Assembly (NCBI GenBank): GCA_003990765.1
Contig: RBNJ01000213.1
Location: forward strand, 1-36,554
From: Jimgerdemannia flammicorona
Taxonomy: Eukaryota
Length of the DNA: 36,554 bases
Reading direction: 5' to 3'
In this document: piece by piece, positions 1-36,554 of the stretch
Layout: each line of letters starts with the position of its first letter
Position numbering within the stretch: the stretch's first letter is position 1
Made by a program: the position numbers and the translations under genes
Notes under the pieces: generated by a model
The model's database searches: none
What the model saw: only the letters and a program-made list of their open reading frames with translations
What the model was told of the DNA's origin: nothing

Positions 1-23
1 AAAAAAAAAAAAAAAAAAAAAAA
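1..23 (+). repeat. Poly(A) tract, probably the tail of a + strand retroposon lying left of the window
   Basis: 23 A at the window edge, abutting LINE-associated sequence; TSD not visible. Confidence 0.45.
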
Positions 24-1450
24 GAGAAGTTCCAACCCCTCACAGTTATACACTCATCTCCTTCTAAGTCAAGTCCAGCCCACACTCCACTACAACCTCC
101 CTCTCTATAGCCCCTCTTACATCTAGACCAGTCAAGATCTCAGTGATCATCTCATCATTCTCAGCCTCTATCTCCTCTTTATACTTCTTATATAACAAAT
201 AACAGTACTGTAAGCTATACTATTGCTTAAACTAGAATACAGCCCACTCCTCTACCACTGTTATCAACTCAGTCTCTCTCACCACATCAACCTCATAACT
301 CTACTCCTCTAAAAGATAGCTAGCACCCCAGCCTTCAGTTTCTCTACCAGACTATCTCCTCTCAGTACTTACTTACAATGCTTCTCACTGACAATCCTCT
401 CCTAGTTCCTCAGCACCAGACTATCAATCATCTTAATCATCTACTGCAGATTGTGCATATACTATCTATCAGAGATTATCAGCCTCTCTCTCTCTATATT
501 ACAATATAAGTACTAGTTCTCATGGACTTATCTCTCTCCATCTCTGGAAATTATGCAGCTTCTCCTCTATAACTCCAACCACCTGCTCCCCTTTTGCTAT
601 ATCTTGTACTTCAAATTGAACACTATACATACCTCTTATCTCTACATCCTCTACACTATTTTAGGTCTGAGCACCAGTCCTCACCTCTAGCCTCTTCTCT
701 TCCTTCCAGACTTTAAGTACTCTATCATCATAGAGCTACTGATCCCTAGCCTCCTGACTCTCTTCCACACTCTTCACCCTCTCTCTATTTTTATTCTCAG
801 CCCAAGTACTCACCTTCAATCCTCCTAAGCCCCCTCCCACTCCAGTCACAGGCCTTTACTTTAAGCTCATCAATAGGTCCTTCTGCCTCTTCCTCCTCTG
901 AGCCTTTTCCCATGATATCTTATTTATATATATTCTCTTTTCATTATCTATCTCTAAGTGTATTGATGCCTCATAAGTCCACCATACCACTGCCCTCTGC
1001 TCTACTACTCCACTGAGCTCCTCTAGGGTCTTCAACAGATCTTTCTCCTCCTTCTCACTCTTCTTTACCCTTGTCACCTTATAATCAAATACTCTCCACA
1101 TCTTCACTGAAGGCTAGTCACAAGTCTTCTCAGTAGTCTCTCACTCTATAAGTCTGATCTAGATATCTATATCTCATATGCTGAACATTATCCCCTCCCA
1201 GACTCAAGGAAACCAATATCTACTATATTGCAATACTCTATCTTTACCTCCTCCACCCTCTATCTTGTCTCAACAGCTATCTCTGGGGACACTCCTTTTA
1301 CCAGAAGCTGTACCACTCTGGGGTTCTACCTCAAACAGTACACCATTGATACCACTATCTCTCAAAGTATCAATCTAGTCTTCAAAGCCTCCTCTAGCAG
1401 CCCTGACTCCTCAAAGCCCACCTCAATCTCCCCTTATATTTAAAGGCCAC
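24..1450 (-). pseudogene. Degenerate coding-like region directly downstream of LINE ORF2 (extra ORF, or ORF1 of a tandem element)
   Basis: Same purine-rich minus strand and CpG loss as the adjacent LINE. Broken frames are E/K/R-rich (ORF 856-1107, EKEEKDLLKTLEELS). No poly(A) separates it from ORF2. Confidence 0.4.
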
Positions 1451-1451
1451 C

Positions 1452-3080
1452 TTACCATCTACTACCACAACTCTCCCCCCACTCTGCCCATAAATTTTCT
1501 CTACTAAACATTGCTAATAACCTCCCTGCAGACTCCATCCCAGCCACCAACTCATCAAAACATCCACCATCAATCCTTTCCACCTTGTCAGCTACTCTCC
1601 TAAACTCAAAAACCTCTCTTCCTCAAAAACAAACAACCAGTGTTCAGCTAACTCCATCCATATAGCTAAAACTCATTCAACAGTAAGCTACTCATTTCCA
1701 ACCCCCCCACCAATCTATCTCTCAAATCTTCCCATCACCCCCTCTCACTATTTCTCCTCCTCACAATATTCAATCTATTTCCAACTATTAACCAAAAGTC
1801 TCCAAGTACCTTACACTCCTCAAGCCAATGTTCTGGTATCTGTAAAAATCCCTCTTCCTGTCCTACATTATAACACTCCTCACAATCAAACTGTCTGCCC
1901 TCTACAAGATGGCCTGAACAAAAGTTGAGCATGATGTTTCCTCCTCAGCAAGCACCACCATACTACTCAGGACTTAGATGACAGCTATTGCTGTATATTA
2001 GTACTCTAGGTCCAAACTCTATTCCAGTTCCACCCTTCTCCAATACTCACCAACTGCTAGCCACTACTGTCTGAACCCTCTCTGGCACTCTACTCCATTA
2101 CTAACATTGAAATCAATCAGTAGAGTATCCCTCAACAATACTCAATCCCATCTCCACATTGCTAGACCTCATGGTATCTCTCCCTCAGCCCCCTGCTAGT
2201 GAAGACTAATGTGGTACACCCCATCAACTACTCTCTACCAGAAGCTCTTATATCTCATGCACCCATTGTTCCAAAACCCAACCAAAGATAGTAGATCCCC
2301 TGTGGAGCCTCTTAGTGCAAACCTCATCTCCCAGACCTTTTTTATCAGAGAAACCCAGCTACAACCTCTCAGTTCCACAGCTCTCTTCAGCCACCAAGCT
2401 CTCAGATAATATAGCCTCTTCAGAAAGTCAACCAGCCTAAGGTCTCTCCTATCTACTAGTAATGACAGAATTTCCCATCTAACCTGACTCTGTCTCTCAG
2501 CCCATATCCAATCTTTGGCTAGCTTCAATAGTCTCTTCACTACTCAGGCTAGAAAGTCCAGATAATAAGCTAAATATTATAGCTTTAGCAACCAGTAGAC
2601 ATTCAGAATTGAAACATGACCTGTTAAGGAGATTTGGTAGTCTCCCCATCTCTACAGAGCCTCCCCCCAGATAGTCACTCACTACTCTCATTAGGTTTTA
2701 GATAGGACTGACCCATAGACTAAAAGGTATATGTCTAAGTACTGTACAGCATCTCTAGTAGGGACAATTGTTCCAATAACATCCCCTCCCAGCAGATCAT
2801 TGTCCAATACCATTGTTTCACACTTATGCCAGTTGAGTTTTGCCCCAGAGTATATCTCATACTACTATACTGTTTTCTGAAGTTCTCCAATATCTACAAT
2901 GATCCAGACCAACTATTTTATTATCCACAAAGGCCCCAACTTTCCAGACAATTCCAAATACTGAGAGCCCTACTATCTTGCATCAAATCCAATTCATCAA
3001 TGGCTCTAAGGATAGAGCATACAAAATAGGAGACAGCAGGTCTCTCTGAGGAACACCTCTATTCAAAAAAAAAAGTCACC
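1452..3080 (-). mobile_element. 5'-truncated, degenerate L1/Tx1-like LINE (RT 3' half plus C-terminal region), inserted in Copia RT
   Basis: Minus-strand remnants RGVPQRDLLSPILY (GVPQGDPLSP motif), KVGAFVDN (F/YADD), QYLDI (YLG), WEILSLLVDRRDLRLVDF (LPxxxGGLGL). Collinear with the copy at 13122-15085. Confidence 0.9.
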
Positions 3081-5572
3081 CCCTTATCTGTTATCTTGAA
3101 TTTCTTATACAGAGCTTCTTTTAATCTATTAAGTATATTTTTTATTATAATGATAATTATACCATCCACCCATATGCCTATGAATATAACTCTATTGATA
3201 TAGTATTAAACATATATAGTTATTTACTTTATAGTATATAAAGCCATTATCAAAGAGATATTTATTAATTTTTCTATTTTACAAATGGACTACTTACTTG
3301 ATGCTATATAATCCTTTATATAGTTTATTTATGAGATTGTCATTCTGCACATATTCTTATAATTGACAAATATATAGCTCTATATCAATGTTGTCATTGA
3401 GAAATGTTATCTATATATCTATTTGGTAAATTTTTGAGTCATATATAAGCACTGATTGCAAGTAGTATTCTTAGTGAAATAAGCTTGAATATTGGCAAAA
3501 ATGTTCCATTATAGTCTATACTGAAATATTGTAAATAACTCTTAGCAATGAAATATAGTTTATACTATTTGATACTTTTATTACTTATTTGATTTTATAG
3601 ACCCAATGTGAACATATACATAGTCTGTTGATTGATCAGAAGGGATACTAGATCTTATATATCATTTTTAATATGCAAATTATACTCTTCATCTATTACT
3701 TACTTTTATCTCTTATTGTCAGAGAAAGTTATTACTTCATTATATATACTTGACTTATCAAAAGTTGTCATAAATATGTATTCATATATATATCTCAGTA
3801 TAGTTTATATAATCTTTATATTAAGAGGTTTTTGATATATTCCAATAATTTTCCAAATTAGAATGAGTCTCATTTCTGGACTTATGCTTTAGCTTTTCTT
3901 CATCCTTAAGACTCTTTATTATCAGAAGTCTAATTATCCTTAATCTCTATTATTCTTGACTCAGATAACTTTGGCTCAGATAAGTATAGTAGTTAAAAAT
4001 AATTTCAACTTTTCAGAGAGGTTGGTGCTGGTTGTTATATTTATATTGGCTGGGATATAGAAGTTATAATAGATATATTTATATAAATCTCCTTATTATT
4101 ATTATTTTTATTATACTATACATTATGCAATATTACTATATAATATTTGTATATATAGATCTCAGAGTTGATATGCCTTACTAGAATACTTAAGAAACAT
4201 ACTTACTGGCTTTCAGCTTAAACTTTGAGCAATTAGTATTACTCTTATTAAGGATGTATATGTATATATATTATATCTAAATATATATAAATACAATACA
4301 TCAGGCTTGGCTCTAGTCTATAATTCCTCAGAGATTAGATTATCATCTCTAGAATACTTATTACTATTATAAGATTCCTTACTTAATACTTAAAATATAT
4401 ACTAGTTATCTATATATACTACTATATTGATCATTATATATACTATCTCTATAGCTATATAGTTAAATTACACAGCCACACCATTCTCCTAAAGTATTTA
4501 TAGAGCTGTTATTTGATAGTACATACTGTGTTTCCTTAGATATCTTGAATGTCCTATTGATATATTTATATCTGTTATCTAAGTATATAATATATTTTCT
4601 ATATTCTGTTTCATTCTTTGAGCTTTTTGAATTTCTTCAAGGCCTTACATTTTACTATTAAGAAGTAAACATATATTTTAATATATAATTATTAATAAAT
4701 ATAATAAAATATCTCTTTCCCCTATAGAAAGTAATATATATCAGACTATATATATCTATATAGATTAAATTAAATATACAGAAATAAGTTTTATCCATAC
4801 TTTAAATGGATATTAGATTGTTATATTTTTCATATAGTCCTTACAGAAACTCTCAGAATGTATTATCAGTAATTTTCATATAGATCTATTTCTGATCATT
4901 CTTTCCAGACTCATATTGTCTAAATATCCTAAGCATTGATGCTATATATTAGATACATCAGATATAGTTGTCATACATATATGTAGAGACTTTTACTTTG
5001 TTTAATATACTATTGATCATATAAATATTGCCTTATTTCAATAGTATCATAATCTTCTTATCATTCTTTAAACTATATATAATTGCTTTCATTAGATATA
5101 TATATATTTCTTTATCACTGTGGGCCATTATTTTGCTAATTTAGAAGAGATTCTTATCTATCTTTGGAGAGTATAGTATGTTCTAAAATATATTAGCAGA
5201 CTCTATAATAGTCTCATAGAGATATATACTAACATTATCTCTTTCTTGAGCATATAAAATATTATTATTATCTAACTTGATTGGTATTAAATATTTGAAG
5301 AACTCATATATAGAAAACTATTTCTGGTAAACTATTATACATTCTATAGTATTAGAATCTATAAGATATAGATTATTATTACCGGTTATATTAGTGTATA
5401 CTTCACTAATAACATTATCACTTTTAGCTAACTCAAAAGTAAGTGGCTTTGATATATAGTGTCACATAGTGGTTGCCAAGTCCTTCAAATATGCCAGATT
5501 CTCTTCAAGGTGTATCTCTTAGACTAACTCAAGTTTGTTATAAGCAAGTTCTTATTGAAGTGTCTTCCCAAG

Positions 5573-6164
5573 TAGTGCTCCTAACGAGTCAATTTAATCC
5601 GGATTGGATTCGGATTGATTCGGATTGAATCCCATCCAGATGGATTCGAATCAACCATTGTTTTGATTTCCAAATTAGATAATTAAATGTTTACATCAAT
5701 AACTCAATGAATAATCATCCAAATTTGATGATCTTGGTGTCATTTGAAAGCCCTTAATATGGCCTATCTAATGATACCATGAACATTGAAATCCGATCAT
5801 GCGTTGCTGAGTTATGAAGGAAACCGTCTGAATCGCCGATTTTGGAAATTCTTCGATTTGCCGATTTTGGAAATTTCGTCAAATAGAACCTTTTCCTTAA
5901 TATCTCGGCAACGCGTAATCCGATTTTAATGTTCTTGATATCATTAGAAAGGCCCTATTAAGGGCTTTCAAATGACACTAAGATCATCAAATTTGGATAA
6001 TTATTCATCGAGTTATTGATGTAAACATTCAATTGTCCAATTTGGAAATCAAAACAATGGTTGATTCGAATCCATCCGGATGGGATTCGAATCCAATCCG
6101 AGTTGATCCGGATGGGATTCAAATCCATCCGAATCCCATCCGGATTGACTCGTTTGGAGCACTA
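5573..6164. mobile_element. 592-bp fold-back MITE, hAT-type
   Basis: TIR TAGTGCTCC(T/A)AACGAGTCAAT; inverted arms of ~250 bp; perfect 8-bp TSD TTCCCAAG (5565-5572, 6165-6172); subterminal CGGAT/GGATT repeats. Confidence 0.95.
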
Positions 6165-6399
6165 TTCCCAAGGTCTTATAGTCCTCAAACTTCTTATCTT
6201 TAACTATCTTGTTATCTCTTAGATTGCTTGCAAGGAAGTGTGTGTAAGTGAAACTAGAACTGACTTTATTTCAGAGGAAATAAGAGGGATATTTATACAA
6301 AATATAATTCAATGGTTGCTAAGATATGAAGCTAAATATAAATTCCAATAACTAAAACTACTAAGTTCCAGGGTCAGTACTGATGGTTGTACAGGTTCA

Positions 6400-6530
6400 A
6401 GATGCTGGTATAATTCAGTGTCACATCAGAATACCGGTACTGGCATTATTCAGTATTACCTCAAAATGCTGGTGCTGGAACAATTTCGCATCACCTCAGA
6501 ATGCCAGTGCTGGTATTATCCAGTGTAACA
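6400..6530. repeat. ~33-bp tandem repeat, about 4 copies, inside the solo LTR
   Basis: Unit approximately TCAGAATGCCGGTGCTGGTATTATTCAGTGTCACC. Confidence 0.8.
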
Positions 6531-6536
6531 AGGGAC

Positions 6537-7349
6537 TTAGAGCAGAATGTTCAAGACCATGGGGGCTTCATCCTCATCATCAGAGATCAGGATATCTTTG
6601 AAGGAGATGAGGTCTGCGAATTCATCATATAGGTCACGCATTTTGCATATGTCAAAGTCACACAGGATGACGTCATCATGTTCAGCGGTGGTGGGAACAA
6701 GGAGATCTGGAGCTCTCCAGTCTATGAGGTTCTCTTCCACAAAATAGGGGATAAATGTGGGGTCTTGGGGAGGTCTAACCTAGATGCTTGAGCCTTGGAA
6801 TACTGAGATCAATCTTTGCAGGAATTGGTCTGGGTTGTCCTGGAGGATGGGGTGCCAGAAGTCTTCTACTTCATCACTATTGAGGGTAATAGTGGACTGG
6901 GCTTCTGTAGCCACTCTGGCTTCTAGTGCATTGATATGGCAGGATGACAGATTTCTGAAGTCTGAGACTCTAACATACTCTAAGTTGGGGATTGACTATG
7001 GTGCATACCTGAAGATCTGATGGATCTTCTTAGCTGTTCTTGTCTCATGTATATCCATAGAAGTGGCATCTTGTAGCTCTTGAGGGCTGGCCTGTGAGAA
7101 CTCCTGGCAGAGGAGGTTTCTTATTTCATACTCCTACCATATTTGGAGGTATTTGGTAGCAATGGTGATCCTTGTTTCCATTTTACAGTGGTAGAGAATA
7201 TAATGATAGAGATCTGCAGTACCCAGGTCAACACTAGGAGTCCTTCTTGAGTGGGTCCTCATAGCTCTTCTGATATCTTGGAACATCTTTTCTTCAACTG
7301 AGGTGCCTTGGTGATTCCTTGACCTTGAGGTTTAGTGGGCAGTAGGCAT
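6537..7349 (-). pseudogene. 270-codon accessory ORF inside the solo LTR (probable ORF3 homologue)
   Basis: One frame from ATG 7349 to TAA 6537 with no frameshift. Four stops (7332-7334, 7134-7136, 6996-6998, 6780-6782) are all TAA/TAG, each one transition from CAA/CAG/TGG. Acidic C-terminus (ISDDEDE). Confidence 0.8.
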
Positions 7350-8383
7350 TTTATTTATAGTAAGTCTTTGAGCTATTTTGGGATTGGTGGGTCTTGTTGA
7401 TTGCTGCTACTGCAGTTCCTTGATTCTTCTTTTATATTCCTCAAGATACTCATACTGTGGTTATAATGACTCACAGTTGGTCATCATTGCTCATCTCGTA
7501 TGCCATATGATCTTCTTGTGCTCTGATCTGGTGGCTTATGAGGAAAGGCTGCCTCCTGTGCTGATGTCATCATTCTGAGGTCACCATTACAATAGATATA
7601 AATATCTTCTCTAGATACTCAGTATATATTACCTATATGTAAAATATGTCTCTATCTTAATTATTATCTATTTAGTAGTATTTTGCATTATATTGTACTT
7701 TGTTATTTCCTCAATTCTTTTCACCACTCCCATATTTCCAATACTGGCCTCTATACTTATTTTCATCATTCTTCTTATTCTTTCAATAGCAGTCATTCTA
7801 TATATATCCATACTTGTTATAGTAATAGCAGTTTTTTTCAAACTTAGATTTATATTTTGAACTTATTAGTACTACTTACCTTATTCACATAATCTATAGA
7901 ATACTATTTCATCATTATTGTCACTATTTTCTTAATATATCTCCTTATTTATGAGACTCATTATTATGTGAATATAGTCTGAAAGCTTACTGCTTTTGTA
8001 CATAGCAACCACTATTATATTATATACCTCAGAGAGGCTTCTTATTAAGACCAGGATCTTGTCTTCATCACCTATATACTTTACTGATATACTTAGAGAA
8101 TTCACTTAATTTACTAAATTATCAATATAATCAGTATATTCACAGATACTCTTCTTAAGCTTCATTTATAGATTGAATAGCTGAGACTTTAGATGGAATT
8201 GATTCAATATAAATGCTTTACATAATAATTATATAAAGTCTTTCATACTTTGTAAGCAGTTGTTGCATACATTATATACTTTATTTATGAATTTAAAAAT
8301 ATAAATATGATCTCACATAATGCTCAGCAATTATTTATAGTATTATAATCTTGAATCTATATCTATGGTTTCATATACTCTAT

Positions 8384-8519
8384 TAGGGATTTCAGATGGC
8401 TGGTCAGAGTGGCTCAGCTTTAAATTTAAGGCCAAGCCACTTGGCCAGTTGGCTATAAATTTAAGACTGAGCTACTCTGGCCAGCCATTGGCCATATGGC
8501 CAGCCATCTGGGATCCCTA
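8384..8519. mobile_element. 136-bp palindromic hAT-type MITE
   Basis: TIR TAGGGAT(TT/CC)CAGATGGCTGG(T/C)CA, starting like the Ac TIR (TAGGGAT); perfect 8-bp TSD TACTCTAT (8376-8383, 8520-8527). Confidence 0.92.
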
Positions 8520-8797
8520 TACTCTATCAAGTGACATTCTTCTAGAAGATTGCTTATATGGAATTCCTAAATGGTGTAATCCTTGCCATCAAAGATTGGG
8601 ATCATCCTCTTGGTTGTGTATATACTTGCTACAGAGACTGTGACCATCATCATACCCATTCTGAGAGTACCAATGCCTGCTGTGGCTGGCACACTTGTTC
8701 TGGCTCCTTACTTTATCTCTTGCAACATCTTGGCATAGAGTAGCATACAGTTTTAGAGAGGTGTTTATTAGGCACTAAGCAGGGCTCATAATCTTTT

Positions 8798-8958
8798 TGT
8801 GACTTTGTTGGGAATATGGAGTGAAGGGAAGAGCAGCAGCATTGTTCATTGATTGCTCATGTTTTTATGTGTTGAGTGACGTAGCTCAAAGATGTAGTTA
8901 CAAAGAATCACGTGTATAAGCCGCATTATCGAGATGCAAAATAATGAAAATTTCAATA
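8798..8958 (-). repeat. 5' LTR of Copia-A (~160 bp)
   Basis: Minus strand TATTGAAATT...AAGTCACA aligns with the Copia-B LTR (TGTTGAAATA...CTACATC...AACAATGCT); followed by the PBS. Confidence 0.7.
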
Positions 8959-10148
8959 AAAACGATTACTGGAGACCGGACCGAACGATACAAGCGATTA
9001 CCGACATACGAACCACGAAAGATTTTGACGACATATTGAATTAAGAGTGATCGCTTGATCAACGACACTAGCATCGACATACCGCTATCAAAAAAATCGA
9101 ACAGCAGCCCTTGCCAGAAACGGCTACCAGAATAGGTAAGCAAGCGATAAGACTTCTAAAAGTGGGAGGCTCATTGAGCCGTGCTTGAAGCAACAAGAAA
9201 TACAAATCGTACGCCACAATATATACTAATTACATTGCTGAAATTTAGCATGTTGCACAATTATAACAGGCCTCAGAAATTATTTAATTTTACCAATGTG
9301 CATCACCAAAACATAACGGCACATTAATTTCAAGCCCTCGCTTTTGTGCAGCTCCTGTGGCAAACTTCGCTCCCAAGAGTGCTTGTCATCTGGTGACCGT
9401 TATTTTCATTAGAAGGGCAGGATATTTTACAGAAATCGTGCATGTCGTTTGGAGCATTATATAGCTGCGCGACGTCTCATCGCGCTGAACCAGGAATGTT
9501 GACGATTGTGCGTTTTGAACATTAAAAACAGGAAGACTTCAGTGAGTAGACAAATTTTATTTATTAATAAATGGTAATTCCGAGAGTAAAATATGCAAAG
9601 CCATTAAACAGAGTAGAAAATTCCACAGTTAGGATTGCGGTGGGGTCTCTCCGTGGGAATAGCTCACAGGCTAATTTACTCTTTTCTGATGAAAGAGAAA
9701 AATAACTTAAGCAAGGCCAGTTTCTAAGTAAAATACAAGATGGGCAATTACATGCAGCCTTTCACTCTTATTCGAAGCGCCAATCAGAATGACCTCATGC
9801 CTCTCAAAAGTATGGAAAGATTGTAACTCATGCTAACCGGCAGCTTGTGCCACCAATATTCCAATGAAAATCAGACACAAAGTCGAATGCTCTCTATGGC
9901 ATATTACCTCGACATTCAGTTCGCTCAGCCACAGAAGGAACTGCCGTATATCGTTCACTATAATTTAATTTTATATTATACAGATATTCAAAAGTAGATT
10001 TCACTATTTATATATTACATAGAAAGAGTTTGTCTCATGCTATGTGTTTAACACATAAATTAATTCTTGTTAAATAATCATAGTTTTCTTCGAAATAGCC
10101 AGTACATAGAAGGTTGCTAAGTCTATATGTTTAAGATCAAAGGCCGAC

Positions 10149-10667
10149 TTACTTTTTCACGTTACAAAACTTTCCGAAGTGTTTACAACGTGCGCAGGGT
10201 ATCCCTCGACATCCTTTCTTGTCCTTTATGCATTCAAAGCACCGATTTCCCGGAGGATTCCGTTTTGTGGTCCTTTCGGTAGCATGAATACGACAACGCC
10301 TCTTCTTCTTCGAACAGTCTGGACATTCCTTGTACAGAATAGGCTTGGGGCCCAAAGTAGCCGTGGTTTCGGTGTGTGTCTTTGGCGGGTAATTCACCAC
10401 TGAACGAAGTGATACAGATGGTGTGCTAGAAGGAAACCGCCGAAAAATTGGCGCTGGCTTGGATGTTGCATCACCATTTGGGAGGTTGCCGGCACCGGCT
10501 TCCGAGTTGAAACTAAGTTGTATGGAACAAGGGACACTTTGAAAGCATTCATACAATTCAGTTGGAAGGATGCCCGTAGAGTCGGGAGTGCCTCCATTGG
10601 CATAGACGCCATTCGGTAATTTGTTGTCATAAAGTTTCGAAGTGACATTGTCTTGGAGATTATCCAT
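10149..10667 (-). CDS. 172-aa protein with a C-terminal Zn(II)2Cys6-like cluster, putative transcription factor
   Basis: CFECIKDKKGCRGIPCARCKHFGKFC = Cx2Cx6Cx4Cx2Cx6C, preceded by CPDCSKKKRRCRIH. N-terminus is P/S/T-rich. True start or a 5' exon is uncertain. Confidence 0.75.
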   Translation of the reverse strand: MDNLQDNVTSKLYDNKLPNGVYANGGTPDSTGILPTELYECFQSVPCSIQLSFNSEAGAGNLPNGDATSKPAPIFRRFPSSTPSVSLRSVVNYPPKTHTETTATLGPKPILYKECPDCSKKKRRCRIHATERTTKRNPPGNRCFECIKDKKGCRGIPCARCKHFGKFCNVKK

Positions 10668-10826
10668 GTTCCCTTCTTGGAAAATTGGATATCGGCATAG
10701 GTATCACCTTTTGAAGCAAGGAGTTATACTACACGGGCTTAGGTCGATGTCGTGGAGGAAGAGTATCGGTGCTTTGGACGAATGGGTTGGAATGTTATGG
10801 TATGTGAATCGGAGTACATGTTCTGC

Positions 10827-10835
10827 TTTTATATA
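10827..10835 (-). promoter_or_regulatory. Candidate TATA box of the Zn-cluster gene
   Basis: TATATAAAA on the minus strand ~160 bp upstream of ATG 10667. Confidence 0.4.
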
Positions 10836-12179
10836 ATTTAAGATGACCTGATTCCATTTTGTACTACGTAATTGTCTGTCCGGCTATTTTATATTGTTTA
10901 CGGTATGTTTAGAGGCGATCCGTGACGGAAAGTTTGACGATGTTATATAGAATTTGTGACCAAAAACAAATTCAAGGCGTTTCGCTGTAGAGGTTTGCTT
11001 CTAAAATATATGCAAACAGGGTGGTATGGTCATGGACGTGTTTATAACACGTCGGGACTGGTGTCCCTCTATTTAATTAGTACTGCGGTAAGTTATTTTG
11101 ACATGGCGATTGTAAGTACCCTCATCCCTCAAATCAAGGCTACAAAGATAATGCCAAATAAGGATTACTTACTTTAGGTATCTAACAGGATTCGCTATAG
11201 AAACATTCTCACGACAACTCGGTTACGATTGTTATCACCCAAATTCAATTTGGCGCCGCAGTGCTATATTAAAATTAGAATCATATGACAGATGTCTAAA
11301 CTTACCCAAAACCGGAATACAAGGTTCAAAACGACGCCGAAGCTAAATTATCGGCCGCATTTAATGTCGGTAATCTTTCTTAACAAATCAGTATCTCATG
11401 AACAAGTAAATAGCTCGCGTGGAATAAATCAAACGACGGTATTGCCGACGAAAGGATTGCCATCCATCACGGTTTTTGGTAAAATACATACAGTCTTACA
11501 ATATTTAGTAAAACTACAGGATACCATACAAATGATTGTGTTTAGAGATGGTAAAAGTCTTGTAATCTTAACATCTTCGATACCTAAATATTCATTAAAA
11601 CAATAAAAGCCTTGTAACCTTTGTGAAACCAAATATTTGCTTTCATTTTAAAGTTTTTCATGGGCCCATCCGGATAAATTTGTGGGTGGCGGGGCGGTGT
11701 GACAACGGATATTATTTCGGTCCATGTGACCTAATATCACTACACAAAGGGAAGTTCTCGATATTTGCATCGACCATTTCCGGTCTGTATATCATGCCTT
11801 GGGTTCTCATCGATCCTGCCACCCTTGGGTCATTTTCTGTATAACAATAGCAAATGAGAGAAATCTGTACAATTACTAAACGGATAATTGTGACGTGTTG
11901 ACGGGAACAGGGAATGATGGTACATGGAGTAAAAGCCTAGTAAGCATTATCCATATCGTTAACGTACTCGTGGTATACCAGAATTTTAAACGAAATACAA
12001 TCACAAAAGGTAAGGTAGTTAAACAACCCCCGGGCTAGAATTTGATCTGCTAACCCGGAATCATGCATAAATTAAATACTGCGCGAATCGTGGGAAAGCA
12101 GTCGATTCCGCGGATAGGCTGACAGGTAATATGTTTAAGGAACTTATAAATGCTTAAAAGAAAATAATGATATCCATTC

Positions 12180-18330: not shown

Positions 18331-19132
18331 TATGGTAATAGTCCAAAATACGTGCCAACGACGACAATACTTGACATCACAGAAGTGTAACCTGTAGTGC
18401 TTAACAGCAATCCAGCAGCCGCAAATGCTTCAGCACGGATTCTTCTCCCTGTAATCCGCAACATTGGCATTCCCGACTCCCGTTTTAGTTCTCGACGACG
18501 TCCTAAGCGTTTCAAAGGTTGTGAAAGTTACAATGTCAATGACTATGACTCAGACAAAGAGAACTGCCGAAGTATTAACTGTTCCCCGCCCGGCACACAC
18601 TAACCCAAGCGTCGGCGAACCATTCACTCGTACACGACGTCCGCCTTGTCGCCCTCGATTTCCACTAATCACAGAAGCACCATATACAACCCTGCCCCTC
18701 GGGTCACAACCAAACTTCATTATTTTGAAATGTCTTCCAATCTGACCAACATTACGTAGCTCGGCGGTACCCCCTGTTCTCTGGCATGTCACTGATACTC
18801 CCGCGGTCTCATGATTGCAACGCCGCCCATGCACTCGACGACAACGCAACGCAAAATTCCGTCACGGCATGTGGTGGCGAAATACGTGGTGCGCAAGCAG
18901 AGATTGATAAAGAATCATAAAGCAAGACACCTTAACCTTAAATAATTCCTCCGTCAACTAATTTGGGCTTGACCGTATTGGAAACAGCGGGACAAGTGGG
19001 CACGACAGTGATGGAAGTGGACATATCGTTGAAGGAGCTCGAGGTGCCGGGATATTTGCCGACTCCTGCGGCCGAGTAAGATTCAGATGAGAACGAACAC
19101 GACCAAGGACGATGATTCCTGCGACACAGGTT

Positions 19133-19563: not shown

Positions 19564-19859
19564 AGGAGGAAGAGAAGGAGGACGTGTGATGTGGAGAGCA
19601 AAAAAAATAAAAAGGCCCCAATTACAAAGCCCGGTTTGAAGCAATTGCTAATCTCTCATTTAACCCATTGTTACATAGTAGTTGGCCACAAGAATTTAAA
19701 CCTCCAAAAGAATGGTAACATACAACGCAAAGAAAGTAAATAAATGCGACATATTTATTATAACGCCCAGCAATTATTATAACACGGTGATCGGTAACCC
19801 TTACGATTGATGACGTGAAAGCCTGGTTGTGCTGGGGTTATGTGACATTGCCGAGGCGA

Positions 19860-23129: not shown

Positions 23130-23982
23130 TGCGATGAGTGAACACTATAGCATAGCCAGATGAAATATAAAAGAATACTTAGCATAATTATCCCACATAG
23201 TTACCCATATGTGCCAAAATTTGTATAAATAACCAGATATACCAAATTGGGACAAACTATCCCCTAAGAGAACACTTGTTCCCTGAGGAACACTTGTCTC
23301 CTGAGAGAACACTCATCCCCTGAGAGAACACCTGTCCTCCAAGAGAACAAGTGAGCACACTATCTCTAAGTTAGCCTTACTGTACATTCTATAATTATCT
23401 GAATAGTAATCAGATAGCAACCAAACTTGTATAAAATACCCCAGAGATTTAAGTGAAAAAACCTCAGTCTAAAAAGTTAATGAAAAGCAAAAGCCAATTA
23501 TCTGATATATGTACTAAGAAAACAGATCTGCCAAAAGCCACTTGAACTAGAAAGAATTACAATACTTAGGAGATATGCCTGTTAATAGTCCCTGCTAAGA
23601 AGTTGTGAGCTTTATTTCTTTTCTACTCCAGTCTACTTCCCAATATAAAGAAGCCCACCAATTTGGGTCTGCTTATCAGATTAAGCTCAAAGAGAAGTCT
23701 GTTATATTTTAGTCTACTTACTAGATAAAGTCTGAGATTTACTACTAAGTTCAAGTAAAAAGCTTTATTACTATTTTAAGAAATTCACCAAATTTGTCAT
23801 ATTATATAGGATTTGTACTAATTAGGAAATCACTAAAATTATTTGTATTATATATCAATAAGAGAACTTCTACTTTTAGAAACTATATATTTGTTACTTT
23901 TCAATAAAGTAACTAGGGGCTCAAGTAAACTTATATAGCTATTCTATCTTATAATTTATCTCTATTGAGTCAGCACATTATA
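23130..23982 (+). repeat. 5' LTR (853 bp) with ~20-bp tandem repeats
   Basis: TG...TTATA (eroded TTACA); CCTGAGAGAACACTTGTC-type repeats at 23260-23350; TGTATAAAA at ~23428. Confidence 0.88.
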
Positions 23983-25734
23983 TTTGAGAACTTAACTCAA
24001 AATCTATATAACTTTTTAGATAACAGAACTCAATAGATAAACTGGATATATTTAATATAGTACTAATCTCTATCACTATAGAAGAATAAATTATCAGTAG
24101 TATTAGATAGGAAGAGAAGTAATTACCTTGAGATTAGACAACCATCAACTATTAGAAGAATTCTAAGAAAAAGCCAGTATTGTACAGAATCCTTTACTAT
24201 TAGTTCAATCACTAAGTTATAGCTCTTAAATATATCAGAAGCAGCAGCAGACCTATTACTATGAGATCTGACCTGATCAGACCAACTGAATAACATTGAC
24301 TACTTTACTCAGAATTTTGATAAACTTAGATTCAATTTCTCTTAAAATTATATCTATCTTACATATTTCCATCTAAACTAGCAAACTCTCTAAGCTTTAT
24401 ACTCTCAATAATATCAAGAATTGCACCAGTATTCCAAAGAGTAGTACCAATCTTTCAACTCTCAGTATCTTAACTGAGTTTAGTATAGATATAGAAACAG
24501 ACTCAGAAAATAAAAATGAATCAGAAACAGCAATAATAAAATAATAGCACTATTACTTACATTTACAGAATATCTAGAAGAAGATCTAAGAGAATTTCTA
24601 GATACTATTAAAGGAATTATAGCTCTGAAAGATCTTCACTCAGAAGACAAATTAGTATCTTTAAAGTATAGCTAAGAGAGCCAACTAAAGAAATCTTTAT
24701 CAGAATATCAAATTATCTAAACTCTGATCTAATATAAGTTTTAGTTATTGTAAATTACTATGCAGACCAATACAAATCCATTTTTTATCAGTTAATTAAG
24801 AAGTATACAGTAATAGAAAAGAAACTATTATAAAAATAAAGATAAATTCTAGAGAATCCCTATGAGTATTCTTTATAAGAATCTAGAAGAGAATGTATAT
24901 AGCTAGATTCAGTACTTCTAACTAAGATATCATCAGTCTAATAATCTTTATAAATAGATTCCTATCAACATTACTTAATATATCTATACTTCTAATATAA
25001 ACCTAATGAATGAGTAGATACTACTTAAGAATTCTTTGATGTAAACTAAGAAATCATCTAAAATGACAACAATAAGAAAGAAGACAAGGAGGACCTCTTG
25101 ATTGAGACTCTCTAAAGAATTCTTTAAAAAAATCTCAGGGAAAAAAAACCCACAAAAGAATAGAAAAAGGATAGTAGTAAAATCTCAGATTAGCTTAAAA
25201 CTAAACCAATTAGTTAGATAAATAGAAAGACTAGATATTCACTTTTGTAAAAATAGAAGTTACCTATCTTGGGATAAAACTCAAGTTCAATGCTATAACT
25301 GCAGATAGCTGGAACACTATATCACAGAATATAACAATAGAAAAACTGATCAATGGGACTTTAAACTTCAAAATCAGAAGAATATAATTCAATATAAGAA
25401 GACTGAAGCTCATTTTATCAAATATTGCATAATTAGTGATAATGAAGACTATAGTGATCTAGATTGATATTCTGCTAAGATTAATTCTAGAAAAACAATC
25501 TACTCTATAGAGAAAAGAGAGACAAATGAAGATAGATAAGTCAGAAGGTTCAAAAGAAGAATTGTTCAAAAAGAAGAGACTGAAGATCAGATTGATACAC
25601 TCTCTCATTCCCCTTCACTCTTTATTTCTAAAACTGATAAACTATTATCTAAATCCAAAAATAAAGAAATAGAATTAGAAGAACAGGAGTCAGTAATTCT
25701 GAAATTTAAAATGAAGTATATTTTAAAGAATATA

Positions 25735-26066
25735 GTCTGCAGATTTACTAACTATTGACTTATTATATTATTGGTAAACAACTACCTGCAGACAGAATCT
25801 ACACAATCTATAACAGAATGTCATAGCACTACTGTAGACCTAGTTCTCCTTAAACAATATATAAAGAATGAACCTAGTTATTTATCAAAGTATCATCAGT
25901 CATATTAAAGTCCTATTTTTAGAGAAAGAACTAAAACCATTAGAATTGAGTGATCCAGATATAGAGAAAGATAATAGCACAGGAGCAGATACTGAAGATA
26001 CTGCCTGTTAAAAAAAAAAAAAAAAAAGATACTGAAGCTACCTAGAGATATTAGAATAATGACTAA
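25735..26066 (+). pseudogene. 3' remnant of accessory ORF3
   Basis: TTPADRIYTIY...FSLNNI*RMNLVIYQSIISHIKVLFL..DNSTGADTE matches TTAADRLYTIY...FSLNDLQRMTLPTYLSIIHQVEILFL..DDGTGIDAE. Confidence 0.8.
25987..26037 (+). mobile_element. Minimal poly(A) retroposition scar
   Basis: AGATACTGAAG + ATACTGCCTGTT + poly(A) + AGATACTGAAG (11-bp TSD); absent from the homologous ORF3 copy. Confidence 0.8.
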
Positions 26067-26105
26067 AGGATAGTCAAGAATAGACTTATCTTTAGTGAGA
26101 ACTGA

Positions 26106-26938
26106 TGTAAAAAGTGAATACTATTTTATTGCTAGATAATATACAAAAGAATACATAATGTAGTTACTCTATATAGTTACTTATATATTATAATTTGTAT
26201 AAATAACTAGATATAGCAAATTAGAACAAACTGTCGACTGAGAGAATACTTATCTCTTGAGAGAATACTTATCTTCTGAGAAAATACTTACATATCTCCT
26301 AAGGGAACACCTGTCCTCCAAGACTTTAAGTAATTATACCATTTCTAAATTAGTCTTACTATATATTGTATAATTATCCAGATAGCAACCAGATAGCAAC
26401 CACATTTATATAAAATACTCCAGAGATTTAAGTGTATAAACCTCAGTCAGAAAAGTCAAAGAAAAGTAAAAGTCAATTGTCTGTTATACTTAGGAGAAAG
26501 GTCTGTCAAAAGCCACTTGATTTAGAAAGGATTACAATACTTCAGAGATATATATACCAATGACCCACTACTAAGAAGTTGAGAGCTTTATTTCTTTTCC
26601 ACTCTAGTCTACTTTTCAATATAGAAGTTAGCTGATTTTGGTCTACTTATCATATTAAGCCTAAAGAGAAGTCTGCTACATTTTGGTCTACTTGCCAGAT
26701 GAGGCCTGAAGATTCACTGCCAAGTTTAGGTGAAGAACTTAGTTGCTATTTTGAGAAATTCACTGTTATACAGAATCTGCACTAATTAGGAAATCACCAA
26801 AATTATCTACATTATGTGTTCAAGATAACTCACACTTTTGGAAACTGAACATTTGTCACTTTTTGACAAAGTAACTGGGGGCTAAAGCCAACTCACATAG
26901 CTGCCCACTTTGTAATTTTATTAAGCCAGCACATTACA
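26106..26938 (+). repeat. 3' LTR (833 bp)
   Basis: TGTAA...TTACA after the PPT-like TTTAGTGAGAACTGA; collinear with the 5' LTR. Confidence 0.88.
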
Positions 26939-28754: not shown

Positions 28755-28757
28755 AAA

Positions 28758-28769
28758 GGTTATGAGCCC
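28758..28769 (+). promoter_or_regulatory. Primer-binding site, internal (half) initiator tRNA-Met type
   Basis: GGTTATGAGCCC 3 nt after the LTR, the PBS type used by yeast Ty5 and Drosophila copia. Confidence 0.85.
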
Positions 28770-31950: not shown

Positions 31951-33371
31951 TGTAATGTGCGTGGCTCAATAGAGGCAAATTACAAGGTTGGGGGTTGATG
32001 TAGTTTGGCTTGAGCCCCCAGTTACTTTGTCAAAAAGCAACAAAATGTTCTAAGATTCCTGAGGTCCTTGGTATTTAGTGGTATAATAGTCAAGCTGGAT
32101 ATCTGTGAGCGATTTGTATGTCGATTTCCTAATTGGGATGGTTCTCTGGGTGTAGCAGCGATTCGGGTGTATGTGTGTGTGTGAACAGGTTTCCTTCTTG
32201 GGTCAACTGGGAATGGTAGAATTTCGTGTGTAGCATGACGATCTCTGTATGTAACAGTCTAGCAATTTAGCGGTTCTCCTTCTTGGGTGGCAGGCAATTT
32301 CTGTGTAGCACGACGATCTTGTGTGGCAATTTAGCAGTTCTCCTTCTTGGGTGGTGGGCGATTTCTGTATAGCATGATGGGTTCCTTATGTGGGATGTTC
32401 TGATAATTTGGTGGATAACTCGATTTGGCTCACAGGGAATTGTACTGGCGGCGGATATCTTAATTACTCAGGCTCACTGGGAACAATGGATAACTTCGGA
32501 TAGTATGGATAATTCAGACAACTGGGAATACTACTTGAATGGTGTGAGTTCTTCCGAATCGGGTTCTTCTGGGAATACAATGGCGTGGATTCTTCCTGAA
32601 TCAGCAGCTTCAACTGGGAATATGGCAGTTAACTTGGAAATGGTAGATGATACAGATTCTCCTAAATCGGCAGCTTCAACTGGGAATTAACTAGGATTCT
32701 TGGCAAGTTATGTCAAAGACTGGCTTCATTTGTGCAAACAGGTCACTGCAAAGTTGTATCAGGAACTGGCTTGTGGCAAGAAAGGCGGGCTCTCTGGGAA
32801 TGCAGTGAAGTTCTTTCTTGAACTTGGCAGAAAACTGGGATTCTTCAGGCTTATCTGGCAAGCATACCAAAAATGATCTCATTCTTTATATTGGAAAGTG
32901 GACCGGAGTAGGGGAAATAAGCTCACAATCTCCTAACAGTAGCTGTAGAGTTCCTCTTGAAGTGTGTTAGGCAGACTTATCTTTTGCTTCAATTTCGGAC
33001 TGAGGTTTATTCACTCTTATCTCTGAGGTAATTTATACAAGTTGGTTACTATCTGGTTGCTATGTGGCTAACTATAGATTTACTACTTCTGGTAATGCTT
33101 GGGTGTGTCCTCTGGGTACAGGTGTGTCCACAGGACATCAGTGTGTCCACAGGACATAAGTGTGTCCGCAGGACATAAGTGTGTCTGCAGGACATGAGTG
33201 TGTCCTCAGGATACAGGTAAGCAATCCTGATCTGGTGTCTGGGCTAATTATAAGTGTGGTGGGCATGGGTAACTATGATACACTGGAAGTCACATCATGC
33301 TGAGTAAGTATGCTAATTGTTCACATCATCTGGCTAAGTTATAATTCAGGTAGCACGTTTGGTCTGTTACA
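31951..33371 (-). repeat. 3' LTR, 1421 bp, with several internal tandem repeats
   Basis: TGTAA/TTACA termini; PPT CAGTGGGGGCTGA at 33372-33384; ~19-bp repeats (GTGTGTCCACAGGACAT) at 33102-33217; ~60-bp repeats at 32190-32380. Homologous to the LTRs at 23130 and 26106. Confidence 0.93.
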
Positions 33372-33410: not shown

Positions 33411-33923
33411 TCAGTCATCATCCCAATAGGCATAAGCAGCTTCTGCATCTATACCTGTTCCATCATCATCATCTGAGCTACAGTCACTCCATTCTGGGGG
33501 TTCCTCTTCTTTCTTGAGAAATAGGATTTCAACTTGGTGAATGATACTGAGGTAGGTAGGCAGTGTCATCCTCTGGAGGTCATTCAGGGAGAACTGGGCC
33601 TGGATTAAGGCAGAGGGGTTTCATTTGTAGATTGTGTATAGTCTGTCTGCAGCAGTAGTATTCCTTCTGTTCAGGCCAGTAGTGTTACGGACATAGGCTA
33701 GGTCTGGGAGGGGAAGATTCTGCAGTTGTTCTCAAATTGCATAGTATGCCTGCAGCTGGTGGACCTAGAGTAGCCTCTCAGCCAAAGTGAGGTTCTCTTG
33801 ATGAACTCGGATTTTCTGAAGATATGTTCCATTGGATTCCCGGAACTGAGGCAGGGGAACTGGTAGGGCTTGGAGGGAACTGAGGTCAAGAGTTTGGAGG
33901 CAGTTGTCAATTCTCTGGTTCAT
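33411..33923 (-). pseudogene. 170-codon accessory ORF3 between integrase and PPT
   Basis: ATG 33923 overlaps the pol end by 17 nt. One frame MNQRIDNCLQ...EEEPPEWSDCSSDDDDGTGIDAEAAYAYWDDD* with three stops (TAG, TGA, TGA), each one C>T from CAG/CGA. Confidence 0.85.
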
Positions 33924-36326
33924 GGTGTGAGATGAGATATATCTTGAGGTGATTGATGTGTACTGGTGTTCTCAGAGCTCGTCCATCCATGCTTCTTAAA
34001 TAGATGCTGGTTCCTCTGATATTGTGTACAAGATAAGGTCCTTCCCATTTGGGCTCCAATTTGGTGGCAAAGTTTGTTTCAATCATGCTTCTCCAAACTA
34101 GTACTTGATCTCCAATCTTGATCTCCTGATCCTTCTGTCTTTGGTCATAGTACTTCTTTTGTCTTTCTTGGGCTTTGATAATCTGACCTTGGGCCTGATT
34201 ACATAAGTGTTCTGCCTTCTTGAGAAGATTCCCAAGGTTCTCATGGTCAGCAGTTCTTGTTTTCTTGGCAAACATCATTTCAAATGGCTTTTGTTTGGTT
34301 GAGGTAGCAGGGGTGTTCTGAATTTCCCATAGGATCTCAGGTAAGCAGAGGTCCCAATTGGTAGAATCGACTCAGACAAGTCCTTTCTTGATGGTCTGGT
34401 TCATCCTTTCTGTCATGCCATTGGTATGAGGATGGTATGATGTAGTCCGTTTGAGATATATCTTGTGAATTCGAGCATAACTTGTGATTATGTTGTTGAT
34501 GAATTCTGTGCCCCAGCCAGAGATGAGTTCTTCTGGGGGTCTATATCTGAGTGTGAGTCCATGGAGAAGGCCTACAATGGTTAGGGCATCTGTGATTTCC
34601 ATTGGGAAAGCCTCAGGCCACTTGGTCAGATGTTCTACAAATATAAGGACATTTTGTTTCTTCTTGGTGTAACTGGTAGAGGTCCAATTACATCTATTCC
34701 CCATCTTTGAAAGATGTGAGTGGGTGGGGGAATCAGTTGCAGAGGGGCTTGATAGTTCTTCTTTCCTTGGTACTTCTGGCAGGTGTCACATTTCTGAATG
34801 ATGTCTCGGACTTGTATTCTGAGGTGGGGCCAATGTTGATATTGTTTCCGAATCTTGTCTTCTATACTTGTCTGTCCTTGGTGGGCTTTCTGACATTCTT
34901 TTCGGATGAGATCTTCTTGTGCCTTGATAGTCTGAGGAGCTTCCTTTAGGGTATAGTTCCTTGGGACACCCTTCTTCTGATTTATTGGTGTTGGCAGGAA
35001 AGTATATCAACATTGTTGTGGGCTTTCCCTACTTTGTGGATGATGGTGATTTTGTAATCCTGAAGAATAAGGAACCAGCAGGCAAGGATTCCAGTGGGTT
35101 TCTTGTGGTTGAATAACCATTTGAGGGCTGCATGGTCTGTGATCAGGGTGAACCTTTTTCCAAAGAGATAATGCTTGAACAGGGTGACTGCCCATATGAC
35201 TGCAAGGCATTCCAGTTTGGTACTACCATAGTTCATCTGCTGTTGATTGGTAGCTCTGCTTGCATAAGCTATCACATGGTACTGTTGATTGGATCCTTCT
35301 TGGGCTAAAACTGCTCCGAGGCCATCTTTGGAGGTATCTGTATACAAGATGAATGGCTTCTGTAGATTGGGGTGTACAAGGATTGGTACTGTAGTCATGC
35401 AGTTTTTGAGTTCTTTGAAGGCTTCTCTTTGTGATTCTGTCCGTTTGAATGGCACTCCTTTCTTGAGAAGGATCCAGATAGGGGCAGCGATTTGAGCAAA
35501 GTTCTTGATAAACCTTCTGTAGTAGGATACTAGCATCAGAAATGATAGTGTCTCCTTCGGGGTTTTGGGTACTGGCCAATTGTTGATCTTCTCAGTTTTC
35601 TTTAGGTCTGCATGGGTTTCTTCTTTCAAGACTATGAATCCAAGGAATTCAAGTTTCTGTTTCCCAAAGTAGCATTTCTTTGCATTCAGTCTCAAGTGGT
35701 TTTTGCGGGTGAGCTTGAAGAATTCCTCCAGGTGGTGCAGGTATTCTTCGAAATTTACTAAATAGATGTTGGAATCATCCATGTATACAATCAGACAGTG
35801 GTGGATTAAGGGAGCATAGACTGAATTAATCATCCTCTGAAAAGTGGGGGGTGCATTGCAAAGTCCAAAGGGCATTCAGAGGTATTCAAACAATTTTCCT
35901 AGAGCAAGGAAGGCTGTCTTTTGAATGTCTTTGGGGTCCATGGGAATCTCATGGAATCCTGTGAAGAGGTCCATACTGCTGAAGTATCTGGCATCTTGTA
36001 ACTGGTCCAAAAGGACATTGATTCTGGGCAAAGGATAGGCATTCTTTTTGGTAACTGAATTGAGTTTCCTGTAATCCACACAGAGCCTCCATCCTCCTTT
36101 CTTTGGTACAATAAGTATAGGGCTAGCCCAGGGGCTAGTGGAGGGTCGGATGACTCCATTGTCTAAGAGTTCTTGAATGTGCTCCTTTTTGAATGTTTTC
36201 AAGTGATGGGGTATTCTATAGGGTTTCTGCCAGATGGGTGTTGCATTTCCTGTATTTATGCTGTGGTGGTATGATGGATTATATGGCAGGTTGCCATAAT
36301 CAGTGGTGAAGATATCTTGATATTTG
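33907..36326 (-). pseudogene. pol: Gypsy pol (RT, RNase H, integrase), disrupted
   Basis: ORF pieces 35876-36326, 34982-35875, 34372-34704, 33907-34278; in-frame TGA at 35876-35878. Confidence 0.95.
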
Positions 36327-36554
36327 TTTTTTTTTTTTTTTTTTTTTTTGTTGTATAGTCTCTTGGACTGCCCTTTATTAATGAAGTCTATAATGTAAAC
36401 AATACAATGTCCCCCTACCCTCAACCAATGCCCCGGGGGCCCAAACCCCCCCTCTCAACCTCCCTCTGCCTGAGCACCACCCCATTACCCACTACCCAAA
36501 CCCTCCCACCACTCTTCCGGGTGATACGCTGCACCAAACCCCTGTGGTACCCCC
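36327..36554 (-). mobile_element. 3' end of a LINE (poly(A) tail plus 3' UTR) inserted in Gypsy pol
   Basis: T23 tract, then ATAGT..GGACT.CCC.TTTATTA, as at the 3' end of the LINE at ~13146; C-rich plus strand like the other LINEs. Confidence 0.8.

Follow-up and report, generated by a model that had tools for sequence, protein, structure and literature searches.

Evidence for a Ty3/gypsy-type solo LTR with an accessory gene in its U3 region in Jimgerdemannia flammicorona

A few retroviruses carry a whole gene within the long terminal repeat (LTR), while we know of no retrotransposon that does so. Here we describe a stretch of 36,554 nucleotides from Jimgerdemannia flammicorona (GenBank assembly GCA_003990765.1, contig RBNJ01000213.1, positions 1 to 36,554 of the forward strand), referred to as the window, in which a unit at 5460..7591 on the minus strand is likely to be the solo LTR of a Ty3/gypsy-type family with a complete accessory gene in its U3 (unique 3') region. 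The LTR seems to be what LTR-LTR recombination left behind inside a Copia element, and a miniature inverted-repeat transposable element (MITE) entered it at a later point.

The closest described arrangement is that of mouse mammary tumour virus (MMTV), whose superantigen gene sag, about 300 codons long, lies entirely in the U3 region of an LTR that measures about 1.3-1.5 kb. The gene is copied into both LTRs and only the 3' copy is on the genomic RNA. Like MMTV, the LTR in the window has a complete gene inside U3. However, MMTV is an infectious betaretrovirus with env, whereas the relatives found here are of Ty3/gypsy type with no env seen, and the gene has no sequence likeness to sag (no Pfam match), with a product that looks nuclear and acidic rather than like a membrane protein. 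What would be new is that a Ty3/gypsy lineage has its accessory gene in the position seen in MMTV. Other retroviral examples are HIV nef and foamy-virus bel2/bet; these accessory genes start in the internal region and extend into U3. As with these genes, the last gene here shares DNA with U3, and a purine tract lies within or before coding sequence; nef and bel2/bet only overlap U3, whereas the whole gene and its 242-nt leader lie after the purine tract at this locus. Cassandra elements, members of the terminal-repeat retrotransposons in miniature (TRIMs), have LTRs with a 5S rRNA-like gene that gives a pol III RNA of about 120 nt. They resemble the present case in that the LTR has a transcription unit of its own and differ from it in that this unit is a pol III RNA gene and not a protein gene.

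Among retrotransposons, lineage-specific genes of no known family located after pol are described in the accessible portions of reports on plant additional open reading frames (aORFs; PMC7264820), bdelloid ORF3s (PMC5408684) and the CERV gene of Cer1 (PMC10309623), the last of which encodes a nuclear RNA-export factor and could serve as a functional model. Two other elements in the window, Gypsy-1 and Gypsy-2, carry an ORF3 of this type. Unlike the genes in those portions, which are internal and upstream of the purine tract, the U3 gene is downstream of the tract and inside the LTR. In CRM and other chromoviruses, the polyprotein frame extends into the 3' LTR according to the available text of two reports (PMC3059260, PMC3605345). 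The present locus is similar in that a frame is open for 35 codons from LTR base 1, but what enters the LTR of CRM is the tail of pol, as far as that text goes, and here U3 has a separate gene. The phrases 'in the LTR', 'within the LTR' and 'inside the LTR' have 0 occurrences in the accessible text of the review of plant aORFs (PMC7264820), and a full-text literature search, with subscription journals outside its coverage, turned up no case of an LTR retrotransposon whose LTR contains a protein gene.

The transposed unit and its ends

The unit is 2,132 bp long, or 1,532 bp once the MITE and one of its two target-duplication copies are subtracted. On the minus strand it starts at 7591 with TGTAATGGTGACC and ends at 5460 with ...CTATGTGACA, which gives the TG...CA termini of an LTR (TGTAATGG...GTGACA). 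Directly outside it are the two copies of a 4-bp target-site duplication, ATAG, at 5456..5459 on the left and 7592..7595 on the right. An initial annotation of this DNA had described a TG...CA element with a 4-bp target duplication and without gag or pol, and the ends and the duplication hold. As to gag and pol, the frame at 7349-6537, the one frame of the unit that was scanned, is without a Pfam family, and no BLASTN likeness was found between the unit and the Gypsy at 32-36.5 kb of the window. An LTR-internal-LTR structure inside 5460-7591 was considered and rejected, the internal direct repeats being only the MITE arms and short units.

Both flanks of the unit are AT-rich (GC 0.23-0.30) and are parts of one decayed Copia element. 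This recipient, copy A (3229..8611, minus strand), was delimited through inverted repeats I2-I7 with a sister, copy B (28966-31901, plus strand), through alignments and through Pfam; the Pfam matches in copy B are to Copia gag and a retroviral SH3-like domain. At the site of the unit, local alignment sets 178 nt of copy B against 2,368 nt of copy A, and the aligned parts reach to within 171 nt of the unit on one side and 65 nt on the other. Therefore, about 2.1 kb was inserted in copy A that is absent from copy B, a junction that is good only to about ±60 bp since the two copies are approximately 65% alike.

Copies of the unit can be found in public metagenome data. Six runs share 0.05-0.18 of the words of the stretch, five of them soil metagenomes and one labelled organism A. 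Contigs were taken from four public runs (X1-X4), the best holders of these words, and placed on the stretch at ≥80% likeness; what they represent is metagenome sequence and not the source genome. The contigs number 2155, 253, 443 and 172 in X1-X4, including 324, 30, 60 and 28 that are at least 99% alike. Cover is heavy from the 5416 bin through the 7496-7599 bin in the four runs, is 0 over bins 5104-5415 in all of them, and falls to 0, 0.29, 0 and 0 over bin 7600-7703. Since the cover starts and stops at 5460 and 7591, the unit is a high-copy repeat with exactly these ends.

The sequence that lies beyond the ends in other copies is what identifies the unit as an LTR. Past 7591, the loose contig ends listed carry one common sequence (at least 5, 4, 1 and 1 contigs in X1-X4, with agreement of 0.81-1.0), and the X4 end extends 210 nt. 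On the element strand this sequence ends ...CAGGAGGAAGA, directly 5' of TGTAATGG, and includes a polypurine tract, a 10-nt purine run that abuts the LTR start TGTAAT (TGTAATGGTGAC). Such a tract before the LTR start was the check suggested by the initial annotation, and at least 11 contigs of the four runs have ...AGGAGGAAGA before TGTAATGG. At the opposite end, one X3 contig continues past 5460 with ACT-TGGTGCCCATTGG... on the element strand, with TGG three bases after CA. This sequence, known from a single contig, is like a tRNA primer-binding site (PBS) in form. Retroviral reverse transcription places the start of U3 at the polypurine tract and the end of U5 at the primer-binding site; with a purine tract at 7591 and a TGG site past 5460, all of 7591-5460 would therefore be LTR. 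The LTR ends, the purine tract and the place of the gene between them bear out the earlier proposal of a solo LTR with a gene inside U3. The first 21 bases of the LTR had no match in viral and genome collections.

It can be asked if the unit is some other mobile element, for example a non-autonomous DNA transposon with TGT...ACA ends, 4-bp duplications and one gene. Such ends and duplications do fit some integrase-related DNA transposons, and neither a second LTR nor pol is found beside the unit. Against this, the terminal inverted repeat is no longer than 3-4 bases, TATA and AATAAA are in LTR order with a promoter block in common with a Gypsy LTR (discussed below), and in other copies the purine tract with its common sequence adjoins one end and the TGG site the other. 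We consider an origin of this kind extremely improbable.

The initial annotation gave the extent of the unit correctly and missed a nested element, a foldback MITE of 592 bp at 5573..6164 that is defined by inverted arms, a target duplication and empty copies. The arms (inverted repeat I1) are 207 nt long and 89% complementary, the termini read TAGTGCTCC.../...GGAGCACTA with terminal inverted repeats that match at 20 of 21 bases by eye, and the 8-bp target duplication TTCCCAAG is found at 5565-5572 and 6165-6172. LTR copies free of the MITE exist: in one contig each of X1 and X4, 5564 is followed by 6165, a skip of 600 bases with 8 letters common to the two sides. Judged by the 8-bp duplication only, and with no transposase seen, the MITE is probably hAT-like. 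In the four runs the MITE family, too, is repetitive, with a lower summed contig depth, and some contigs join the two arms on opposite strands.

The U3 gene and its protein family

Read along the minus strand, the LTR consists of the TGTAAT start, the leader, the gene, degenerate repeats of about 35 nt, TATA, AATAAA and U5. The gene, at 6537..7349 (minus strand), has 270 codons and a stop and begins 242 nt after the LTR start. Six nucleotides 3' of its stop is a TGTTACA (6524..6530, minus strand) that could be left over from an earlier LTR start or be there by chance; there is no purine tract before it, and the bases preceding it are pyrimidine-rich. Between the gene and the promoter, about four degenerate units of ~35 nt can be made out by eye at 6385..6530 (minus strand), with a BLASTN self-match of 52 nt at 77% and a 70-nt offset. 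Other copies differ in this region by skips of 36, 66-74, 112 and 139 nt, sizes that would fit a varying number of repeat units. A candidate core promoter block, TTAGCAACCA ... TGTATAAAT, follows at 6291..6322 (minus strand), with TATAAA at 6297-6292 and TGTATAAAT at 6299-6291, and a putative poly(A) signal, AATAAA, is found at 6265..6270 (minus strand), about 22 nt after the TATA box. As motifs, these promoter and poly(A) sequences are in U3-R order. The initial annotation had placed the frame upstream of tandem repeats and a TATA block. The TATA sequence is present as described; the repeats are degenerate units seen by eye, and Tandem Repeats Finder reports no array at 6340-6560 even at score 30. 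A scan for bacterial promoters and terminators, which is not relevant to a eukaryotic element, gave counts at shuffle level.

At the upstream end of the LTR is the frame that stays open for 35 codons from base 1 (7487-7591, minus strand, frame 0). It may be the tail of an upstream reading frame, of pol or another gene, that ends inside the LTR. A search with the first 40 codons of the LTR, in which two stops were written as X and longer proteins were sought, returned no relatives sharing three words. By eye, the frame is in phase with the common upstream sequence of other copies (...QEDPYSGGR), and Gypsy-1 reads ...LPFSGG*CN at the equivalent junction.

The gene had been reported as one long frame with two stops marked. 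There are four in-frame stops, at codons 6, 72, 118 and 190, and the window copy is dead. In intact relatives that cover these columns, all four are sense codons. A word-indexed search of 5.8 billion proteins gave relatives in 6 clusters at E≤0.01 among 297 candidates; P0001-P0006 have E values of 1e-115 to 1e-36 and are 56-78% identical to the window frame, and tblastn aligns the frame with P0002 at 67.5% over all 271 residues. A profile search of 1.84 billion representatives found 5 clusters at E≤0.001, three of which are new and more distant. Intact relatives span 247-342 aa, with full-length members such as P0002 (271 aa), P0009 and P0011 (323 aa) and P0023 (342 aa). The alignment of 12 members, which are 27-80% identical to P0002, contains 9 invariant and 21 nearly invariant core columns. 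Family features include MPA... at the start, an arginine-rich N-terminus, the core, an acidic tail and LNF(L/R)L at the C-terminus, and the start-codon context is conserved as well. All relatives come from short contigs (540-2375 nt; ENA, JGI) and are named at most 'hypothetical protein'. Judged by the conservation of these sequences, the frame belongs to a real gene family.

Little can be said about this family from known domains or structures. No Pfam family was found at E≤0.01 for the U3 gene, ORF3 or the 12 family members, and weak matches to ATG5_HBR (E 0.088) and GAE_BBS1 (E 0.23) were taken as chance. A PDB sequence profile search had 0 matches at E≤1, and a profile search of viral and genome collections with the U3 gene had no match. 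In the Protein Atlas, the best match of P0009 (0.91) is a 61-member cluster without a family, and the others score <0.9 and have unrelated domains. AlphaFold2 models built from 9 and 12 sequences have a mean pLDDT of 40.2 and 46.9, respectively; they are mostly helical and too poor for a fold search.

The poor models, the lack of a family in Pfam, PDB or the Atlas, and the short contigs from which all relatives come are what one would also see if the frame were a chance open frame in repeat DNA, called as a gene in many metagenome contigs. However, members that are no more than 27-56% identical keep frames of 271-342 codons open, conservation is seen at the start, in the core motifs and in LNF(L/R)L at the C-terminus, and the decayed window copy demonstrates how fast stops build up without constraint. 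A chance frame is therefore very unlikely.

Several points must be weighed against a solo LTR that runs from 7591 to 5460 with the gene in its U3. A 4-bp match has a chance of about 1 in 100 in AT-rich DNA, by arithmetic from GC 0.25-0.30. The PBS-like end rests on one contig, and the contigs of the four runs include no full-length element with LTR 5460-7591, the longest at 7591 being 387 nt. The varied flanks that are expected at 7591 from 5' and solo LTRs are not among the loose ends listed. Because of the four stops, no protein can come from the window copy, and with poor structure models and no match to a family or solved structure, the function of the family is read from composition only. 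Finally, the common sequence past 7591 is also expected from a truncated internal region, and the terminal inverted repeat is, by eye, better from 6530 (TGTTACA vs TGTCACA) than from 7591 (TGTAAT vs TGTCAC).

The last two points favour an alternative in which the gene is internal, like ORF3, and the LTR starts at TGTTACA (6530) and measures about 470 bp without the MITE. The window copy would then be 5'-truncated, with its upstream end and ATAG a coincidence. This alternative also has in its favour that the order of gene stop, a few bases, TGT(T/A)ACA, repeats and TATA is the same as in Gypsy-1, whose LTR starts there. On the other hand, there is no purine tract before 6530, and the 10-nt purine run abuts 7591 in other copies; the truncation would need to have fallen exactly at a TG beside the purine tract and to have recreated a 4-bp duplication; and at the insertion site Copia copy A has lost no sequence. 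The loose ends at 6530 (at least 2 X2 contigs and at least 1 from X4) read like one more repeat unit, and summed contig depth, a weak measure, is as high over the gene as over R-U5 and is not higher over 5460-6530 than over the gene. The initial annotation had itself considered an LTR start at 6530; with no purine tract there and loose ends of this kind, we judge such a start to be unlikely and retain the solo LTR of 5460-7591 as the better reading.

Kinship with the ORF3-type Gypsy elements

Of the two ORF3-type elements in the window, Gypsy-1 has a pol remnant (33904..36454, minus strand) with Pfam matches to reverse transcriptase (RT), RNase H, and the integrase zinc finger and core. The ORF3, at 33411..33923 (minus strand), is 170 codons long and interrupted by 3 in-frame stops; it overlaps with the end of pol and stops 39 nt short of the 3' LTR (TGTAACAG...CATTACA; 31951..33371, minus strand). 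At the junction, ...TTCAGTGGGGGCTGA stands directly before TGTAACAG at 33371. This LTR is without a gene in U3; it has an array of 19 bp x 4.7 at 33122-33211, TGTATAAAT at 33039 and AATAAA at 33011. Gypsy-2 (23135..26938, plus strand) is decayed, AT-rich and internally short, and was recognized from its direct repeats and an ORF3 remnant. Its LTRs, at ~23135-23982 and ~26106-26938, are aligned as direct repeats at 23137-23980 and 26113-26936, with 75% over 851 columns. The ORF3 remnant at 25737-26002 is located just before the 3' LTR, about 100 nt from the LTR start (tblastn with P0018, E 5e-12). Both Gypsy-2 repeats match Gypsy-1 at the promoter, the middle and the very end, and the sequence leading up to the second repeat is a match to Gypsy-1 33418-33367. 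From this LTR pair it follows that the Gypsy-1 LTR runs from 33371 to 31951 and that ORF3 is internal. The Gypsy-1 junction, made of TTCAG, purines and a GA that abuts TGTAA, resembles that of the solo-LTR family by eye.

A link between the gene-bearing family and these elements is provided by a metagenome contig. A scan of metagenomes for related loci gave 2 loci, L001 and L002, the second of which was rejected as a 15-residue chance match with nothing around it. L001 is 1,345 nt long and has an intact frame of 323 codons, with the gene followed by TGTATAAAT and then AATAAA, as in the solo LTR. At its start is GAATATAAAAG, which stands 58 nt before the ATG; this 11-mer is also found in the window at 7429..7439 (minus strand), 80-90 nt before the ATG, and is a candidate second promoter. 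On the 3' side of the gene, L001 reads ...TTAGCAAAA...CTGTATAAATACCCCTC...GTGAATAAACCTCAGTC. This 3' part aligns with the solo LTR at a score of 32 and with the Gypsy-1 LTR at a score of 40, neither of which is attained by any of 300 shuffles. Compared directly, the solo LTR and the Gypsy-1 LTR match only weakly (19 of 300 shuffles reach the score). Since the L001 block matches both LTRs, the gene-bearing family and the ORF3-type Gypsy share a core promoter/poly(A) block, and by their sequences the two are probably one lineage. DNA-level kinship of the whole unit with Gypsy-1 was rejected, there being no BLASTN match and only short blocks alike. L001 (1243-1259) and the Gypsy-1 LTR (33014-32998, minus strand) have their poly(A) signal within one and the same 17-mer, GTGAATAAACCTCAGTC.

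Descent of the U3 gene from ORF3, as the initial annotation had proposed, is a further question. ORF3 is a real family, with 4 clusters at E≤0.01 among 163 candidates and intact members of 171-172 aa. The translations agree with the earlier observation that the U3 gene and ORF3 products both end in acidic tails. The alignment that had been made by eye fares less well. BLASTP of the two window frames gives E 0.23 in another register, while hhalign finds the by-eye register (QEYEIG.../AHYAIG..., ...AKKIHQIFRHAP/...AADRLYTLYKRNP) with E 0.096 from 9 sequences and 0.024 from 12, at a probability of 0.6% and 2%. When the columns of the ORF3 alignment are shuffled, the score is 13.7 ± 2.6 compared to a real score of 21.8, which 1 of 200 shuffles reaches; the reversed alignment scores 15.9, and the control is a lenient one. 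The profile-profile comparison that had been called for thus recovers the register and falls short of significance. The ORF3 family is also not among the 5 clusters from the U3-gene profile search of 1.84 billion representatives.

Position tells a similarly divided story. ORF3 lies between pol and the polypurine tract, upstream of the LTR start, and the U3 gene lies 242 nt downstream of that start. After both genes come TGT(T/A)ACA, repeats, TGTATAAAT and AATAAA, and the two genes flank, one on each side, a junction that appears to be homologous itself. We tentatively put forward the internal ORF3 of the sister elements as a possible ancestor of the U3 gene, a proposal that is as yet somewhat more likely to fail than to hold. 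The U3 gene may have been relocated, for example via a duplicated tract-and-start segment upstream of ORF3 with TGTTACA as what remains of it, or may have been captured into U3 independently. A more elaborate scheme, which we think improbable, can also be imagined: the U3 gene would be the ORF3 of the lineage, moved into the LTR by a new upstream copy of the purine tract and LTR start, with TGTTACA as the old start. Every LTR, solo LTRs included, would then be self-contained with GAATATAAAAG, gene and poly(A) signal, and the product would transactivate the downstream repeats. If this were true, solo LTRs, scattered in their thousands, could remain a source of a trans-acting factor when the elements themselves had long disappeared.

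The Gypsy elements have other features of note. Gypsy-2 is without a clean target duplication: ATAG follows the 3' LTR, and another ATAG is found upstream of the 5' LTR at a distance of 4 nt. The ~35 nt that lead up to the 5' LTR resemble the stretch that precedes the 3' LTR, and Gypsy-2 may be part of a tandem or recombined array. The Gypsy-1 LTR is ~650 bp longer than the Gypsy-2 LTRs between two matching blocks (758 vs 107 nt; 32050-32808, minus strand), and the extra stretch, with repeated ttcccagttgaagctgc pieces, may be an insertion or an expansion. A-runs are found at window 1-25 and ~36400-36430, the latter beside the upstream end of the pol remnant, where Gypsy-1 pol is cut, possibly by another insertion. 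For the Gypsy RT-RNase H, the nearest named Protein Atlas clusters are arthropod and chordate, which is a lead only.

Possible expression, surroundings and significance

A full element would carry the U3 gene in both LTRs, as follows from the way LTRs are synthesized. Its genomic RNA would start after the gene in the 5' LTR and end after the gene in the 3' LTR, and only the 3' copy would be on the RNA, as the last gene. The gene lies upstream of the LTR's TATA. Either a spliced or subgenomic RNA or a promoter of its own would be needed. Expression by one of these routes, with the conserved GAATATAAAAG as the candidate promoter, is a plausible suggestion from the arrangement of the sequence, although one we make with reserve. 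The transcript would use the poly(A) signal of the LTR, and with its own promoter any LTR, including a solo LTR, could express an intact copy. The window copy, being dead, gives no support to the picture in the initial annotation of each solo LTR as a stand-alone gene cassette. The product, with its arginine-rich N-terminus, helical core and acidic tail, might be a nuclear regulator of the element's promoter repeats or RNA, like Tax/Tas or Rev/CERV, a role that we regard as speculative.

The window has also been looked at for traces of repeat-induced point mutation (RIP), for which the thresholds are a TpA/ApT above ~0.89 with a (CpA+TpG)/(ApC+GpT) below ~1.03. No RIP-like signature was found, (CpA+TpG)/(ApC+GpT) being 1.15-1.52 in all segments, and the differences from other copies are transitions in both directions. 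Elsewhere, window 1-3100 and 13000-15100 hold related, strongly C-rich repeats (D2, D4), ~11.8 kb apart and with a GC skew to -0.59. Their minus-strand translations have non-LTR reverse-transcriptase-like motifs by eye, and no Pfam match was found at E≤0.001 for the repeats at 1900-3100 and 13700-15100. Blocks with a GC of 0.38-0.47 are located between AT-rich Copia remnants at 8600-12000, 18000-23000 and 27000-29000; a number of frames of 100-184 codons occur in them, and none has a Pfam family.

The usual view of LTRs is that they are non-coding control regions and that solo LTRs act at most as promoters or enhancers. A protein gene in U3 would be doubled in every element, would survive the LTR-LTR recombination that removes gag and pol, and would be spread to each insertion site together with an adjoining promoter region and poly(A) signal. 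Genes of this kind can also be lost from view during annotation: repeat maskers would hide them, and gene callers report them as orphan hypothetical proteins, as is the case for the relatives of the U3 gene. Sister elements with an accessory gene across the LTR boundary would offer a case for studying how accessory genes move relative to the purine tract, and this may bear on the origin of the layouts of complex retroviruses, such as those of sag, nef and bet.

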